Sequence record: AY264776.1
Source: Escherichia phage T7
DNA length: 37,664 nt
Strand: one strand, 5' to 3'
This document shows, piece by piece, positions 1,472 to 28,300 of this stretch. The notes beneath the pieces were generated by a model. That model did no database searches. It was not told the origin of the DNA and saw nothing but the letters and a program-made list of their open reading frames with translations. The position numbers and the translations under genes are program-made. Each line of letters begins with the position of its first letter. Within the stretch, counting starts at the first letter, position 1.

Positions 1472-1556
1472 ATGTATATGGACTGATAGTCTTATCTTAC
1501 AGGTCATTTGCGGGTGGCCTGAATAGGTACGATTTACTAACTGAAAGAGGCACTAA
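1472..1556 (+). other. Deletion scar: first codons of gene 0.5 (atgtatatg) joined to the sequence immediately upstream of gene 1; genes 0.5, 0.6, 0.7 absent
   Basis: Gene 0.4 is followed after ~150 bp by the RNA polymerase gene; no kinase (0.7) ORF anywhere in the window. Confidence 0.8.
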
Positions 1557-4208
1557 ATGAACACGATTAACATTGCTAAGAACGACTTCTCTGACATCGA
1601 ACTGGCTGCTATCCCGTTCAACACTCTGGCTGACCATTACGGTGAGCGTTTAGCTCGCGAACAGTTGGCTCTTGAACATGAGTCTTACGAGATGGGTGAA
1701 GCACGCTTCCGCAAGATGTTTGAGCGTCAACTTAAAGCTGGTGAGGTTGCGGATAACGCTGCCGCCAAGCCTCTCATCACTACCCTACTCCCTAAGATGA
1801 TTGCACGCATCAACGACTGGTTTGAGGAAGTGAAAGCTAAGCGCGGCAAGCGTCCGACAGCCTTCCAGTTTCTGCAAGAAATCAAGCCGGAAGCCGTAGC
1901 GTACATCACCATTAAAACCACTCTGGCTTGCCTAACCAGTGCTGACAATATAACCGTTCAGGCTGTAGCAAGCGCAATCGGTCGGGCCATTGAGGACGAG
2001 GCTCGCTTCGGTCGTATCCGTGACCTTGAAGCTAAGCACTTCAAGAAAAACGTTGAGGAACAACTCAACAAGCGCGTAGGGCACGTCTACAAGAAAGCAT
2101 TTATGCAAGTTGTCGAGGCTGACATGCTCTCTAAGGGTCTACTCGGTGGCGAGGCGTGGTCTTCGTGGCATAAGGAAGACTCTATTCATGTAGGAGTACG
2201 CTGCATCGAGATGCTCATTGAGTCAACCGGAATGGTTAGCTTACACCGCCAAAATGCTGGCGTAGTAGGTCAAGACTCTGAGACTATCGAACTCGCACCT
2301 GAATACGCTGAGGCTATCGCAACCCGTGCAGGTGCGCTGGCTGGCATTTCTCCAATGTTCCAACCTTGCGTAATTCCTTCTAAGCCGTGGACTGGCATTA
2401 CTGGTGGTGGCTATTGGGCTAACGGTCGTCGTCCTCTGGCGCTGGTGCGTACTCACAGTAAGAAAGCACTGATGCGCTACGAAAACGTTTACATGCCTGA
2501 GGTGTACAAAGCGATTAACATTGCGCAAAACACCGCATGGAAAATCAACAAGAAAGTCCTAGCGGTCGCCAACGTAATTACCAAGTGGAAGCATTGTCCG
2601 GTCGAGGACATCCCTGCGATTGAGCGTGAAGAACTCCCGATGAAACCGAAAGACATCGACATGAATCCTGAGGCTCTCACCGCGTGGAAACGTGCTGCCG
2701 CTGCTGTGTACCGCAAGGACAAGGCTCGCAAATCTCGCCGTATCAACCTTGAGTTCATGCTTGAGCAAGCCAATAAGTTTGCTAACCATAAGGCCATCTG
2801 GTTCCCTTACAACATGGACTGGCGCGGTCGTGTTTACGCTGTGTCAATGTTCAACCCGCAAGGTAACGATATGACCAAAGGACTGCTTACGCTGGCGAAA
2901 GGTAAACCAATCGGTAAGGAAGGTTACTACTGGCTGAAAATCCACGGTGCAAACTGTGCGGGTGTCGATAAGGTTCCGTTCCCTGAGCGCATCAAGTTCA
3001 TTGAGGAAAACCACGAGAACATCATGGCTTGTGCTAAGTCTCCACTGGAGAACACTTGGTGGGCTGAGCAAAATTCTCCGTTCTGCTTCCTTGCGTTCTG
3101 CTTTGAGTACGCTGGAGTACAGCACCACGGCCTGAGCTATAACTGCTCCCTTCCGCTGGCGTTTGACGGGTCTTGCTCTGGCATCCAGCACTTCTCCGCG
3201 ATGCTCCGAGATGAGGTAGGTGGTCGCGCGGTTAACTTGCTTCCTAGTGAAACCGTTCAGGACATCTACGGGATTGTTGCTAAAAAAGTCAACGAGATTC
3301 TACAAGCAGACGCAATCAATGGGACTGATAACGAAGTAGTTACCGTGACCGATGAGAACACTGGTGAAATCTCTGAGAAAATCAAACTGGGCACTAAGGC
3401 ACTGGCTGGTCAATGGCTGGCTTACGGTGTTACTCGCAGTGTGACTAAGCGTTCAGTCATGACGCTGGCTTACGGGTCCAAAGAGTTCGGCTTCCGTCAA
3501 CAAGTGCTAGAAGATACCATTCAGCCAGCTATTGATTCCGGCAAGGGTCTGATGTTCACTCAGCCGAATCAGGCTGCTGGATACATGGCTAAGCTGATTT
3601 GGGAATCTGTGAGCGTGACGGTGGTAGCTGCGGTTGAAGCAATGAACTGGCTTAAGTCTGCTGCTAAGCTGCTGGCTGCTGAGGTCAAAGATAAGAAGAC
3701 TGGAGAGATTCTTCGCAAGCGTTGCGCTGTGCATTGGGTAACTCCTGATGGTTTCCCTGTGTGGCAGGAATACAAGAAGCCTATTCAGACGCGCTTGAAC
3801 CTGATGTTCCTCGGTCAGTTCCGCTTACAGCCTACCATTAATACCAACAAAGATAGCGAGATTGATGCACACAAACAGGAGTCTGGTATCGCTCCTAACT
3901 TTGTACACAGTCAAGACGGTAGCCATCTTCGTAAGACTGTAGTGTGGGCACACGAGAAGTACGGAATCGAATCTTTTGCACTGATTCACGACTCCTTCGG
4001 TACCATTCCGGCTGACGCTGCGAACCTGTGCAAAGCAGTGCGCGAAACTATGGTTGACACATATGAGTCTTGTGATGTACTGGCTGATTTCTACGACCAG
4101 TTCGCTGACCAGTTGCACGAGTCTCAATTGGACAAAATGCCAGCACTTCCGGCTAAAGGTAACTTGAACCTCCGTGACATCTTAGAGTCGGACTTCGCGT
4201 TCGCGTAA
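1557..4208 (+). CDS. 1: T7 DNA-directed RNA polymerase
   Basis: 883 aa; catalytic HDSFG motif and C-terminal FAFA present. Confidence 0.98.
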   Translation: MNTINIAKNDFSDIELAAIPFNTLADHYGERLAREQLALEHESYEMGEARFRKMFERQLKAGEVADNAAAKPLITTLLPKMIARINDWFEEVKAKRGKRPTAFQFLQEIKPEAVAYITIKTTLACLTSADNITVQAVASAIGRAIEDEARFGRIRDLEAKHFKKNVEEQLNKRVGHVYKKAFMQVVEADMLSKGLLGGEAWSSWHKEDSIHVGVRCIEMLIESTGMVSLHRQNAGVVGQDSETIELAPEYAEAIATRAGALAGISPMFQPCVIPSKPWTGITGGGYWANGRRPLALVRTHSKKALMRYENVYMPEVYKAINIAQNTAWKINKKVLAVANVITKWKHCPVEDIPAIEREELPMKPKDIDMNPEALTAWKRAAAAVYRKDKARKSRRINLEFMLEQANKFANHKAIWFPYNMDWRGRVYAVSMFNPQGNDMTKGLLTLAKGKPIGKEGYYWLKIHGANCAGVDKVPFPERIKFIEENHENIMACAKSPLENTWWAEQNSPFCFLAFCFEYAGVQHHGLSYNCSLPLAFDGSCSGIQHFSAMLRDEVGGRAVNLLPSETVQDIYGIVAKKVNEILQADAINGTDNEVVTVTDENTGEISEKIKLGTKALAGQWLAYGVTRSVTKRSVMTLAYGSKEFGFRQQVLEDTIQPAIDSGKGLMFTQPNQAAGYMAKLIWESVSVTVVAAVEAMNWLKSAAKLLAAEVKDKKTGEILRKRCAVHWVTPDGFPVWQEYKKPIQTRLNLMFLGQFRLQPTINTNKDSEIDAHKQESGIAPNFVHSQDGSHLRKTVVWAHEKYGIESFALIHDSFGTIPADAANLCKAVRETMVDTYESCDVLADFYDQFADQLHESQLDKMPALPAKGNLNLRDILESDFAFA

Positions 4209-9976: not shown

Positions 9977-11709
<1,733 letters not shown>

Positions 11710-14868: not shown

Positions 14869-15249
14869 ATGAACGAAAGACACTTAACAGGTGCTGCTTC
14901 TGAAATGCTAGTAGCCTACAAATTTACCAAAGCTGGGTACACTGTCTATTACTCTATGCTGACTCAGAGTAAAGAGGACTTGGTTGTATGTAAGGATGGT
15001 AAATTTAGTAAGGTTCAGGTTAAAACAGCTACAACGGTTCAAACCAACACAGGAGATGCCAAGCAGGTTAGGCTAGGTGAATGCGGTAGGTCCGAATATA
15101 AGGATGGAGACTTTGACATTCTTGCAGTTGTGGTTGACGAAGATGTGCTTATTTTCACATGGGACGAAGTAAAAGGTAAGACATCCATGTGTGTCGGCAA
15201 GAGAAACAAAGGCATAAAACTAGAGGAGAAACTTAATGGCACTTCTTGA
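14869..15249 (+). CDS. 5.3: Gene 5.3 fused in frame to the last ~8-9 codons of gene 5.9 (deletion of 5.5, 5.7 and most of 5.9)
   Basis: 126-aa ORF starting MNERHLTGAASEMLVAYKF (gp5.3) and ending ...EEKLNGTS (gp5.9 C-terminus), overlapping the gene 6 start as 5.9 does in T7. Confidence 0.75.
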   Translation: MNERHLTGAASEMLVAYKFTKAGYTVYYSMLTQSKEDLVVCKDGKFSKVQVKTATTVQTNTGDAKQVRLGECGRSEYKDGDFDILAVVVDEDVLIFTWDEVKGKTSMCVGKRNKGIKLEEKLNGTS

Positions 15250-16595: not shown

Positions 16596-16862
16596 ATGTG
16601 TTTCTCACCGAAAATTAAAACTCCGAAGATGGATACCAATCAGATTCGAGCCGTTGAGCCAACGCCTCTGACCCAAGAAGTGTCAAGCGTGGAGTTCGGT
16701 GGGTCTTCTGATGAGACGGATACCGAGGGCACCGAAGTGTCTGGACGCAAAGGCCTCAAGGTCGAACGTGATGATTCCGTAACGAAGTCTAAAGCCAGCG
16801 GCAATGGCTCCGCTCGTATGAAATCTTCCATCCGTAAGTCCGCATTTGGAGGTAAGAAGTGA
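16596..16862 (+). CDS. 6.7: Gene 6.7 virion protein
   Basis: 88 aa from ATG 16596 (MCFSPKIKTPKMDTNQIRAV...). Confidence 0.85.
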   Translation: MCFSPKIKTPKMDTNQIRAVEPTPLTQEVSSVEFGGSSDETDTEGTEVSGRKGLKVERDDSVTKSKASGNGSARMKSSIRKSAFGGKK

Positions 16863-17263
16863 TGTCTGAGTTCACATGTGTGGAGGCTAAGAGTCGCTTC
16901 CGTGCAATCCGGTGGACTGTGGAACACCTTGGGTTGCCTAAAGGATTCGAAGAACACTTTGTGGGCTACAGCCTCTACGTAGACGAAGTGATGGACATGT
17001 TTGGTTGCCGTGAAGAGTACATTCTGGACTCTACCGGAAAACATGTAGCGTACTTCGCGTGGTGCGTAAGCTGTGACATTCACCACAAAGGAGACATTCT
17101 GGATGTAACATCCGTTGTCATTAATCCTGAGGCAGACTCTAAGGGCTTACAGCGATTCCTAGCGAAACGCTTTAAGTACCTTGCGGAACTCCACGATTGC
17201 GATTGGGTGTCTCGTTGTAAACATGAAAGCGAGACAATGCGTGTATACTTTAAGGAGGTATAA
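16862..17263 (+). CDS. 7: Gene 7 protein (host range / virion)
   Basis: 133 aa from ATG 16862; the ORF track begins at an upstream GTG. Confidence 0.85.
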   Translation: MSEFTCVEAKSRFRAIRWTVEHLGLPKGFEEHFVGYSLYVDEVMDMFGCREEYILDSTGKHVAYFAWCVSCDIHHKGDILDVTSVVINPEADSKGLQRFLAKRFKYLAELHDCDWVSRCKHESETMRVYFKEV

Positions 17264-17266
17264 GTT

Positions 17267-17566
17267 ATGGATATGAAAGTTAAGAAGGCCGTGAAGAAAG
17301 TCGCCAAGTTCGTTAAGAAAGTCGTTAAGGAAGGGGCTCGTCCGGTTACACAGGTTGCTGGCGGTCTAGCTGGTCTGGCTGGTGGTACTGGTGAAGCACA
17401 GATGGTGAAAGTACCACAAGCTGCCGCACAGATTGTTGACGTACCTGAGAAAGAGGTTTCCACTGAGGACGAAGCACAGACAGAAAGCGGACGCAAGAAA
17501 GCTCGTGCTGGCGGTAAGAAATCCTTGAGTGTAGCCCGTAGCTCCGGTAGCGGTATCAACATTTAA
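17267..17566 (+). CDS. 7.3: Gene 7.3 tail-associated protein
   Basis: 99 aa, Lys/Ala-rich MDMKVKKAVKKVAKFVKKVVKEG... Confidence 0.9.
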   Translation: MDMKVKKAVKKVAKFVKKVVKEGARPVTQVAGGLAGLAGGTGEAQMVKVPQAAAQIVDVPEKEVSTEDEAQTESGRKKARAGGKKSLSVARSSGSGINI

Positions 17567-20618: not shown

Positions 20619-20641
20619 TAATACGACTCACTATAGGGAGA
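20619..20641 (+). promoter_or_regulatory. T7 promoter phi10 with gene 10 leader
   Basis: taatacgactcactatagggagaccacaacggtttccctctagaaataattttgtttaactttaagaagga, the leader familiar from T7 expression vectors. Confidence 0.97.
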
Positions 20642-20698
20642 CCACAACGGTTTCCCTCTAGAAATAATTTTGTTTAACTTTAAGAAGGAAATATACAT

Positions 20699-21736
20699 AT
20701 GGCTAGCATGACTGGTGGACAGCAAATGGGTACTAATCAAGGTAAAGGTGTAGTTGCTGCTGGAGATAAACTGGCGTTGTTCTTGAAGATATTTGGCGGT
20801 GAAGTCCTGACTGCGTTCGCTCGTACCTCCGTGACCACTTCTCACCACATGGTACGTTCCATCTCCAGCGGTAAATCCGCTCAGTTCCCTGTTCTGGGTC
20901 GCACTCAGGCAGCGTATCTGGCTCCGGGCGAGAACCTCGACGATAAACGTAAGGACATCAAACACACCGAGAAGGTAATCACCATTGACGGTCTCCTGAC
21001 GGCTGACGTTCTGATTTATGATATTGAGGACGCGATGAACCACTACGACGTTCGCTCTGAGTATACCTCTCAGTTGGGTGAATCTCTGGCGATGGCTGCG
21101 GATGGTGCGGTTCTGGCTGAGATTGCCGGTCTGTGTAACGTGGAAAGCAAATATAATGAGAACATCGAGGGCTTAGGTACTGCTACCGTAATTGAGATCA
21201 CTCAGAACAAGCCCGCACTTACCGACCAAGTTGTGCTGGGTAAGGAGATTATTGCGGCTCTGACTAAGGCTCGTGCGACTCTGACCAAGAACTATGTTCC
21301 GGCTGCTGACCGTGTGTTCTACTGTGACCCAGATAGCTACTCTGCGATTCTGGCAGCACTGATGCCGAACGCAGCAAACTACGCTGCTCTGATTGACCCT
21401 GAGAAGGGTTCTATCCGCAACGTTATGGGCTTTGAGGTTGTAGAAGTTCCGCACCTCACCGCTGGTGGTGCTGGTATTGCTCGTGAGGGCACTACTGGTC
21501 AGAAGCACGTCTTCCCTGCCAATAAAGGTGAGGGTAATGTCAAGGTTGCTAAGGACAACGTTATCGGCCTGTTCATGCACCGCTCTGCGGTAGGTACTGT
21601 TAAGCTGCGTGACTTGGCTCTGGAGCGCGCTCGCCGTGCTAACTTCCAAGCGGACCAGATTATCGCTAAGTACGCAATGGGTCACGGTGGTCTTCGCCCA
21701 GAAGCTGCTGGTGCAGTGGTTTTCAAAGTGGAGTAA
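20699..21736 (+). CDS. 10A: Major capsid protein 10A
   Basis: 345 aa beginning MASMTGGQQMG. Confidence 0.98.
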   Translation: MASMTGGQQMGTNQGKGVVAAGDKLALFLKIFGGEVLTAFARTSVTTSHHMVRSISSGKSAQFPVLGRTQAAYLAPGENLDDKRKDIKHTEKVITIDGLLTADVLIYDIEDAMNHYDVRSEYTSQLGESLAMAADGAVLAEIAGLCNVESKYNENIEGLGTATVIEITQNKPALTDQVVLGKEIIAALTKARATLTKNYVPAADRVFYCDPDSYSAILAALMPNAANYAALIDPEKGSIRNVMGFEVVEVPHLTAGGAGIAREGTTGQKHVFPANKGEGNVKVAKDNVIGLFMHRSAVGTVKLRDLALERARRANFQADQIIAKYAMGHGGLRPEAAGAVVFKVE

Positions 21737-21855
21737 TGCTGGGGGTGGCCTCAACGGTCGCTGCTAGTCCCGAAGAGGCGAGTGTTACTCCAACAGAAGA
21801 AACCTTAACGCCAGCACAGGAGGCCGCACGCACCCGCGCTGCTAACAAAGCCTGA
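20699..21855 (+). CDS. 10B: Minor capsid protein 10B (-1 frameshift near the end of 10A); extension ends early at TGA 21853-21855
   Basis: -1 frame from ~21721 reads FQSGVMLGVASTVAASPEEASVTPTEETLTPAQEAARTRAANKA then TGA; in T7 this frame continues to the TAA at 21892-21894. Confidence 0.6.
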
Positions 21856-21893
21856 AAGGAAGCTGAGTTGGCTGCTGTCACCGCTGAGCAATA

Positions 21894-21942
21894 ACTAGCA
21901 TAACCCCTTGGGGCCTCTAAACGGGTCTTGAGGGGTTTTTTG
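21894..21942 (+). terminator. T7 RNAP terminator Tphi
   Basis: ctagcataaccccttggggcctctaaacgggtcttgaggggttttttg. Confidence 0.97.
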
Positions 21943-21959
21943 CTGAAAGGAGGAACTAT

Positions 21960-22550
21960 ATGCGCTCATACGATATGAACGTTGAGACTGCTGCTGAGTT
22001 ATCAGCTGTGAACGACATTTTGGCGTCTATCGGTGAACCTCCGGTATCAACGCTGGAAGGTGACACTAACGCAGATACAGCGAACGCTCGGCGTATTCTC
22101 AACAAGATTAACCGACAGATTCAATCTCGTGGATGGACGTTCAACATTGAGGAAGGCATAACGCTACTACCTGATGTTTACTCCAACCTGATTGTATACA
22201 GTGACGACTATTTATCCCTAATGTCTACTTCCGGTCAATCCATCTACGTTAACCGAGGTGGCTATGTGTATGACCGAACGAATCAATCAGACCGCTTTGA
22301 CTCTGGTATTACTGTGAACATTATTCGTCTCCGCGACTACGATGAGATGCCTGAGTGCTTCCGTTACTGGATTGTCACCAAGGCTTCTCGTCAGTTCAAC
22401 AACCGATTCTTTGGGGCACCGGAAGTAGAGGGTGTACTTCAAGAAGAGGAAGATGAGGCTAGACGTCTCTGCATGGAGTATGAGATGGACTACGGTGGGT
22501 ACAATATGCTGGATGGAGATGCGTTCACTTCTGGTCTACTGACTCGCTAA
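21960..22550 (+). CDS. 11: Tail tubular protein A
   Basis: 196-aa ORF. Confidence 0.96.
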
Positions 22551-26056: not shown

Positions 26057-28300
26057 ATGAGTAAAATTGAATCTGCTCTTCAAGCGACACAACCGGGACT
26101 CTCTCGGTTACGTGGTGGTGCTGGAGGTATGGGCTATCGTGCAGCAACCACTCAGACCGAACAGCCAAGGTCAAGCCTATTGGACATCATTGGTCGGTTC
26201 GCTAAGGCTGGTGCCGATATGTATACCGCTAAGGAGCAACGAGCACGAGACCTAGCTGATGAACGCTCTAACGAGATTATCCGTAAGCTGACCCCTGAGC
26301 AACGTCGAGAAGCTCTCAACAACGGGACCCTTCTGTATCAGGATGACCCATACGCTATGGAAGCACTCCGAGTCAAGACTGGTCGTAACGCTGCGTATCT
26401 TGTGGACGATGACGTTATGCAAAAGATAAAAGAGGGTGTCTTCCGTACTCGCGAAGAGATGGAAAAGTATCGCCATAGTCGCCTTCAAAAAGGCGCTAAG
26501 GAATACGCTGAGCAGTTCGGCATCGACCCTGAGGACGTTGATTATCAGCGTGGTTTCAACGAGGACATTACCGAGCGTAACATCTCGCTGTATGGTGCGC
26601 ATGATAACTTCTTGAGCCAGCAAGCTCAGAAGGGCGCTATCATGAACAGCCGAGTGGAACTCAACGGTGTCCTTCAAGACCCTGATATGCTGCGTCGTCC
26701 AGATTCTGCTGACTTCTTTGAGAAGTATATCGACAACGGTCTGGTTACTGGCGCAATCCCATCTGATGCTCAAGCCACACAGCTTATAAGCCAAGCGTTC
26801 AGTGACGCTTCTAGCCGTGCTGGTGGTGCTGACTTCCTGATGCGAGTCGGTGACAAGAAGGTAACACTTAACGGAGCCACTACGACTTACCGAGAGTTGA
26901 TTGGTGAGGAACAGTGGAACGCTCTCATGGTCACAGCACAACGTTCTCAGTTTGAGACTGACGCGAAGCTGAACGAGCAGTATCGCTTGAAGATTAATTC
27001 TGCGCTGAACCAAGAGGACCCAAGGACAGCTTGGGAGATGCTTCAAGGTATCAAGGCTGAACTAGATAAGGTCCAACCTGATGAGCAGATGACACCACAA
27101 CGTGAGTGGCTAATCTCCGCACAGGAACAAGTTCAGAATCAGATGAATGCATGGACGAAAGCTCAGGCTAAGGCTCTGGACGATTCCATGAAATCAATGA
27201 ACAAACTTGACGTAATCGACAAGCAATTCCAGAAGCGAATCAACGGTGAGTGGGTCTCAACGGATTTTAAGGATATGCCAGTCAACGAGAACACTGGTGA
27301 GTTCAAACATAGCGATATGGTTAACTACGCCAATAAGAAGCTCGCTGAGATTGACAGTATGGACATTCCAGACGGTGCCAAGGATGCTATGAAGTTGAAG
27401 TACCTTCAAGCGGACTCTAAGGACGGAGCATTTCGTACAGCCATCGGAACCATGGTCACTGACGCTGGTCAAGAGTGGTCTGCCGCTGTGATTAACGGTA
27501 AGTTACCAGAACGAACCCCAGCTATGGATGCTTTGCGCAGAATTCGCAATGCTGACCCTCAGTTGATTGCTGCGCTATACCCAGACCAAGCTGAGCTATT
27601 CCTGACGATGGACATGATGGACAAGCAGAGTATTGACCCTCAGGTTATTCTTGATGCCGACCGACTGACTGTTAAGCGGTCCAAAGAGCAACGCTTTGAG
27701 GATGATAAAGCATTCGAGTCTGCACTGAATGCATCTAAGGCTCCTGAGATTGCCCGTATGCCAGCGTCACTGCGCGAATCTGCACGTAAGATTTATGACT
27801 CCGTTAAGTATCGCTCGGGGAACGAAAGCATGGCTATGGAGCAGATGACCAAGTTCCTTAAGGAATCTACCTACACGTTCACTGGTGATGATGTTGACGG
27901 TGATACCGTTGGTGTGATTCCTAAGAATATGATGCAGGTTAACTCTGACCCGAAATCATGGGAGCAAGGTCGGGATATTCTGGAGGAAGCACGTAAGAAA
28001 ATCATTGCGAGCAACCCTTGGATAACCAATAAGCAACTGACCATGTATTCTCAAGGTGACTCCATTTACCTTATGGACACCACAGGTCAAGTCAGAGTCC
28101 GATACGACAAAGAGTTACTCTCGAAGGTCTGGAATGAGAACCAGAAGAAACTCGAAGAGAAAGCTTGTGAGAAGGCTCTGGCTGATGTGAACAAGCGAGC
28201 ACCTATAGTTGCCGCTACGAAGGCCCGTGAAGCTGCTGCTAAACGAGTCCGAGAGAAACGTAAACAGACTCCTAAGTTCATCTACGAACGTAAGGAGTAA
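26057..28300 (+). CDS. 15: Internal core protein gp15
   Basis: 747-aa ORF. Confidence 0.96.
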   Translation: MSKIESALQATQPGLSRLRGGAGGMGYRAATTQTEQPRSSLLDIIGRFAKAGADMYTAKEQRARDLADERSNEIIRKLTPEQRREALNNGTLLYQDDPYAMEALRVKTGRNAAYLVDDDVMQKIKEGVFRTREEMEKYRHSRLQKGAKEYAEQFGIDPEDVDYQRGFNEDITERNISLYGAHDNFLSQQAQKGAIMNSRVELNGVLQDPDMLRRPDSADFFEKYIDNGLVTGAIPSDAQATQLISQAFSDASSRAGGADFLMRVGDKKVTLNGATTTYRELIGEEQWNALMVTAQRSQFETDAKLNEQYRLKINSALNQEDPRTAWEMLQGIKAELDKVQPDEQMTPQREWLISAQEQVQNQMNAWTKAQAKALDDSMKSMNKLDVIDKQFQKRINGEWVSTDFKDMPVNENTGEFKHSDMVNYANKKLAEIDSMDIPDGAKDAMKLKYLQADSKDGAFRTAIGTMVTDAGQEWSAAVINGKLPERTPAMDALRRIRNADPQLIAALYPDQAELFLTMDMMDKQSIDPQVILDADRLTVKRSKEQRFEDDKAFESALNASKAPEIARMPASLRESARKIYDSVKYRSGNESMAMEQMTKFLKESTYTFTGDDVDGDTVGVIPKNMMQVNSDPKSWEQGRDILEEARKKIIASNPWITNKQLTMYSQGDSIYLMDTTGQVRVRYDKELLSKVWNENQKKLEEKACEKALADVNKRAPIVAATKAREAAAKRVREKRKQTPKFIYERKE

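Follow-up and report, generated by a model that had tools for sequence, protein, structure and literature searches.

Gene 10 of phage T7 encodes the major capsid protein 10A and, through a −1 frameshift, the minor capsid protein 10B. The T7 genome analysed here (AY264776.1; the whole stretch of 37,664 nucleotides is called the window) carries a TGA in the 10B frame. This triplet raises the questions of whether 10B is truncated in this strain, how the stop arose and whether it has any particular meaning. The gene 10 region contains the following features, in which isolate K is the T7 record AY264775.1.

20619–20641, plus strand: T7 promoter phi10 (TAATACGACTCACTATAGGGAGA), read from the sequence and matching the phi10 annotation in V01146
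20684–20690, plus strand: Shine–Dalgarno region of gene 10, with AAGGAA in place of AAGGAG through G>A at 20690; common to isolate K
20699–21736, plus strand: gene 10A, major capsid protein, 345 codons plus TAA, from the open reading frame list and comparison with T7
21718–21724, plus strand: slippery heptamer G_GTT_TTC for the −1 frameshift, same as wild type in the alignment
21724–21852, plus strand: 10B-specific extension as now read in the −1 frame, 43 codons (QSGVMLGVASTVAASPEEASVTPTEETLTPAQEAARTRAANKA), by reconstruction
21790, plus strand: T>C found in the window only, Ser>Pro, from alignment with K and wild type
21853–21855, plus strand: premature TGA in the 10B frame, common to isolate K, by alignment
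21856–21894, plus strand: last 12 former 10B sense codons and the old TAA, now untranslated, holding the C>T at 21878, by alignment
21902–21942, plus strand: Tphi terminator hairpin and T-run, including CCCC, identical to wild type by alignment and fold

The 10B reading frame and its frameshift signals

The triplet at 21853–21855 reads TGA in the letters, in the context aaagccTGAaagg, and the surrounding segment 21847–21862 is aaagccTGAaaggaag. It shares its frame with a 39-residue open reading frame at 21736–21855, which is −1 relative to 10A (20699–21736). Alignment with the T7 reference V01146 places a C>T change at 21853 (reference 24121) that converts the Arg386 codon from CGA to TGA, as the original prediction had stated. 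That prediction had also assigned the stop to the −1 frame of 10B, and the assignment holds: the frame is entered at GGTTTTC and the reconstruction ends at this TGA.

For the reconstruction, 10B was rebuilt explicitly by reading the 0 frame through the heptamer and then re-reading its C. The T7 protein obtained in this way is composed of 342 + 56 = 398 codons and stops at TAA, and that of the window is composed of 342 + 43 = 385 codons and stops at TGA. The residues lost are RKEAELAAATAEQ, exactly 13, in agreement with the earlier estimate of about 13. The computed mature 10B has 384 residues and a mass of ~40.4 kDa in the window, compared with 41.7 kDa in wild type. The wild-type stop TAA lies at 21892–21894, which accounts for the feature end of 21894 given earlier. 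The −1 frame is thus open for only 43 codons before the TGA closes it, short of the ~56 codons of a T7-type frameshift. 10A keeps its 0-frame stop and is unaffected by the TGA, because 21853 lies 3' of that stop codon.

Four differences from V01146 are present between 21660 and 21960. The C>T at 21682 is synonymous in 10A, and the C>T at 21853 creates the stop. The C>T at 21878 (reference 24146) is the second C-to-T change that had been noticed downstream; it alters GCC to GTC in the 10B frame, would be Ala>Val, and is also present in K. The fourth, T>C at 21790 (reference 24058), replaces Ser with Pro at residue 23 of the extension. This third change in the extension was missing from the original prediction, and it is private to the window, being found neither in isolate K nor in wild type.

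The signals for frameshifting are preserved. The slippery heptamer GGTTTTC lies at 21718–21724 with GTT in frame with 10A and a 0-frame tail of VFKVE*, and G_GUU_UUC is named as the slippery site of gene 10 in a review of recoding (PMC5009743). Positions 21894–21960 are identical to T7 and contain the Tphi hairpin, with a fold of −22.8 kcal/mol; the distant 3' stimulator is intact. A CCCC inside Tphi helps to stimulate the gene 10 frameshift from more than 200 nucleotides away (PMC5009743), and the frameshift occurs in ~10% of translations (PMC1635266). As read from these elements, the window contains the frameshift system with a product predicted to be truncated.

Lineage and origin of the stop

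Isolate K, deposited as ‘Enterobacteria phage T7 isolate K’, was the top megablast match when 24 kb of the window was compared with 50,697 phage records, with 99.9% identity; ordinary T7 records reached ~99.0% in the same search. In a whole-genome alignment, the window differed from K by 22 substitutions and in two deletions, and from the wild-type T7+ of the Bull laboratory (AY264774) by ~406 substitutions. G:C>A:T changes account for 367 of these 406 (183 C>T and 184 G>A) and for 387 of the 412 substitutions leading from wild type to K. Such an excess of G:C>A:T is the signature of an alkylating mutagen.

In a five-way alignment of the window with wild type, K and the isolates P and P82, 23 changes were common to the K and P lineages, 266 were found only in P and P82, and 362 only in K and the window. 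The last group includes the TGA. The window adds 18 private changes and 2 reversions, and P82 adds 17 private changes, such that the window relates to K as P82 relates to P. The two reversions, out of ~412 K mutations, fall in non-coding DNA of the left end, at 280 and 338. By these alignments, the window genome is a laboratory-mutagenised T7 and appears to be a later descendant of K. The lineages were reportedly produced by Bull et al. 2003 (J Mol Evol 57:241) through mutagen-assisted bottleneck passage followed by recovery. The mutagen is said to have been nitrosoguanidine, for which the spectrum described here is indirect support. The lineage paper is cited in PMC8923235 and PMC4811365, and AY264776 appears in the VIRIDIC preprint (10.1101/2020.07.05.188268) under the name ‘K155 strain of the T7 phage’.

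The distribution of the TGA follows this layout. Isolate K has both the TGA and the C>T at 21878, and wild type, P and P82 have neither. The P lineage contains two other G>A changes in the 10B extension, with no stop. A 43-base query was positioned so that each 28-base megablast seed covers the mutated base; among the 50,697 phage records, the TGA was matched only in AY264775. The original prediction had named a reference containing the same TGA as grounds against it. V01146 has CGA, and so do all nine natural Teseptimavirus relatives compared (C5, ESh3, YpsP-G, CQ615, phiA1122, Ebrios, 13a, vB_YpYeO9 and a Vi06-like Salmonella phage), none of which has a stop at this position. The one record that does share the TGA is that of the mutagenised ancestor, which explains the origin of the change and does not refute the observation. 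Its presence in K and its absence from wild type, P, P82 and the relatives indicate that the stop arose once, by C>T at CGA, in the K bottleneck lineage.

The base that makes the stop is contained in GenBank under AY264775, a sequence made public with the 2003 deposits. The GenBank annotation of K downgrades genes 4.7, 5.7 and 5.9 to ‘similar to gene ...’. 10B is unannotated in all Bull-laboratory records, wild type included, and for this reason its truncation is unflagged. The truncation itself is the only point that the deposited records leave unstated.

Mutational load, tolerance and rival explanations

A stop in the 10B extension is real and is not unexpected for this genome. The G:C>A:T rate in K is 387 of 18,922 G:C sites, or 2.05%. 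In the 10B-specific extension of K, 2 of the 98 G:C sites are changed (2.0%), equal to the genome average, and one of the two made the stop. The extension contains four sites at which G:C>A:T gives a stop codon. By arithmetic from these counts, the probability that at least one of the four is changed is ~8% at 2.05% and ~11% at 2.96%, the latter being the rate at synonymous sites of dispensable genes in K.

We divided the genes into essential and dispensable classes that we take from general knowledge of T7 genetics. In essential genes of K, 0 of 717 nonsense-capable G:C sites are changed, compared with ~18.6 expected at their own synonymous rate of 2.6%. In dispensable coding sequence 4 of 230 such sites are changed, one each in genes 4.7, 5.7, 5.9 and the 10B tail. 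Nonsense mutations in K survive only in dispensable sequence, and the 10B tail behaves as ordinary dispensable coding sequence under mutational load. The pattern provides a clean view of purifying selection filtering a heavy mutagen load: dispensable genes have several nonsense changes and essential genes have none. In the window, W48* of gene 4.7 (TGG>TGA, 12454) is the sole nonsense mutation left besides that of 10B; genes 5.7 and 5.9 had acquired theirs in K, before a 654-bp deletion in the window.

The dispensability of 10B for T7 growth, as originally asserted, is borne out by the literature: form B ‘is not essential’ (PMC5592923), and PMC9967953 supports the same conclusion. The C terminus of 10B is an unstructured surface extension that is replaced in display vectors and evolves readily (PMC8923235).

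It is highly probable that the stop is a tolerated, chemically induced nonsense mutation in 10B that became fixed through drift. In line K, during accumulation of mutations with the help of a mutagen, a C>T turned codon 386 of 10B from CGA (Arg) to TGA, and the window genome inherited it from K. Approximately one in ten ribosomes would slip by −1 at G_GUU_UUC close to the end of 10A and would stop at the UGA 13 codons early, yielding a 385-codon 10B that lacks RKEAELAAATAEQ. The peptide KEAELAAVTAEQ would be absent from 10B in this strain, and translation would no longer reach the second C>T, at 21878. The stop would have persisted because growth does not require 10B or, in particular, its exposed C-terminal tail. 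Frameshifting would continue at its usual rate in the window; as the slippery site and Tphi are intact, the shortened 10B is probably still produced. Truncated 10B is expected to assemble into capsids, and the fitness effect of the stop would be about neutral.

Three other explanations were weighed. In the first, the three clustered substitutions, or the truncation itself, might act at the RNA level by altering −1 frameshift efficiency and hence the 10A:10B ratio, or by altering the behaviour of gene 10 mRNA, through changed structure or ribosome traffic upstream of a terminator that contains the distant stimulator. All three changes do sit in the RNA between the slippery site and Tphi, and the minimum free energy predicted for the 225-nucleotide segment from the heptamer to Tphi shifts modestly, from −86.2 kcal/mol in wild type to −81.2 in K and −84.1 in the window. 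In addition, T>C at 21790 is predicted to convert a G.U pair into G-C in a stem at ~21729–21791 that starts ~5 nucleotides 3' of the heptamer. However, wild type, K and the window share one predicted fold topology for the segment, with an unchanged terminator hairpin. Compensatory covariation was found in 0 of the 29 pairs of the predicted stem among 10 relatives compared, and a conserved stem 3' of the heptamer was dropped from consideration on this ground. The mutation density of the extension, equal to the genome average, also gives no sign of selection on the segment. We regard an RNA-level effect as improbable, and the more specific proposal, that the three substitutions, among them the T>C at 21790 that strengthens the predicted stem, and the earlier −1-frame termination measurably alter the efficiency of gene 10 frameshifting, as very improbable. 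If it were true, this strain would offer a natural means of probing the long-range stimulator of T7 10B synthesis, which still lacks an explanation.

It is even harder to credit that the stop was positively selected or compensatory in K, with a shorter tail aiding a capsid that bears seven changes in 10A. The stop was kept through the recovery phase, and in the window 10A has itself gained R49H, as well as T172P over A172T. Yet nearly all K mutations were kept, and with only 2 of ~412 reverted the retention of the stop is uninformative. The change is of the mutagen type and arose in a bottleneck line, in which drift dominates, and the independent P lineage has no stop of any kind in the extension. 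A sequencing or assembly error in a phage that lacks the stop has next to no credibility. The six N bases in the window indicate that base-calling was imperfect in places, but position 21853 is unambiguous, the change belongs to the dominant mutation type, and the ancestor, deposited separately as AY264775, has the T as well; for the last reason an error was rejected as the source of the TGA. With the fixed and tolerated nonsense mutation as the preferred explanation, the stop is one ordinary member of ~400 mutagen-induced changes and has no special significance. In a modest way it confirms that T7 can do without the final 13 residues of 10B under laboratory conditions.

Relation to known systems and further changes in the window

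Compared with the 10A/10B frameshift of T7 itself (V01146 / NC_001604), the window has the same gene, G_GTT_TTC site, 0-frame stop and Tphi, and the first 43 codons of the extension are the same save for one Ser>Pro. The two differ in that the −1 reading frame ends with TGA after 43 codons in the window and with TAA after 56 in wild type. Isolate K, a mutation-accumulation line of the Bull laboratory, shares with the window the TGA, the second C>T and the 362 K-specific substitutions. Relative to K, the window adds 18 substitutions, including the T>C at 21790, 2 reversions, a larger early deletion and the 654-bp deletion in the 5.5–5.9 region. T7 display vectors and other engineered or evolved 10B tails are similar in that the tail is shortened, replaced or extended in phages that remain viable (PMC8923235; 10.1101/2023.12.07.570578). 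Those tails were engineered or selected, whereas the stop in the window is an incidental mutagen change.

A naturally short extension is found in the Vi06-like Salmonella phage CHRF_10025, which has 48 codons and a different C terminus, so that the length of the 10B tail is not fixed across Teseptimavirus. The extension of CHRF_10025 diverges in sequence and then terminates at an ochre codon; that of the window is interrupted by an internal CGA>TGA in the conserved ARKEAELAAATAEQ motif. The extensions of the relatives were rebuilt from DNA. A tblastn search with the 56-residue extension aligned residues 1–30 only, and the low-complexity filter of tblastn masks the Ala/Glu/Lys-rich 10B tail. 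A 56-codon extension is present in wild type and in 8 of the 9 natural relatives sampled. The last 13 residues of 10B are identical in 5 of the 9 and identical or nearly so in 7–8. This conservation hints faintly at a natural function of the 10B tail, and it is weak evidence because the relatives are very similar in DNA overall.

P82 and Ebrios display other peculiarities in the region. In P82 (AY264778) a G>A of the P lineage replaces Glu with Lys at residue 33 of the extension; all nine natural relatives sampled have Lys there, making the Glu of T7 the odd one out. In Ebrios the shift site is CGTTTTC rather than GGTTTTC, and the downstream 10B-like frame is annotated as a separate ‘capsid and scaffold protein’ open reading frame.

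The 10A protein of the window differs from wild type by seven amino-acid changes, V31I, R49H, T167I, A172P, A179V, A194T and T260I. Codon 172 (window 21212) was mutated twice: K has Ala>Thr, to which the window adds Thr>Pro. R49H (window 20844) is new in the window relative to K. R49H and the second change of codon 172 are candidates for compensatory mutations from the recovery. Position 26502 is another third-state site, like codon 172 of 10A. Upstream of 10A, the G>A at 20690 makes a weaker ribosome-binding site for the T7 gene with the highest expression, and may be a factor in the fitness loss of lineage K.

Of the 22 changes leading from K to the window, 9 are A:T>C:G transversions, compared with 2 of 23 from P to P82. 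These are unlike the mutagen spectrum, and the enrichment could reflect selection or another mutational regime during recovery. The six N bases of the window lie at 10477, 10633, 20375, 25678, 35600 and 35660; K is the same as wild type at all six. They presumably mark sites at which the sequenced population was polymorphic or the base could not be resolved.

Two deletions further distinguish the window from K. K lacks the 654-bp deletion at 15217|15218 (T7 reference 16832–17485), through which the window has lost the end of gene 5.3, the whole of 5.5 and 5.7, and most of 5.9. The deletion in the early region, at 1477|1478 (T7 reference 1502–3091), measures 1591 bp, compared with 821 bp in K, and takes genes 0.5, 0.6 and almost all of 0.7.
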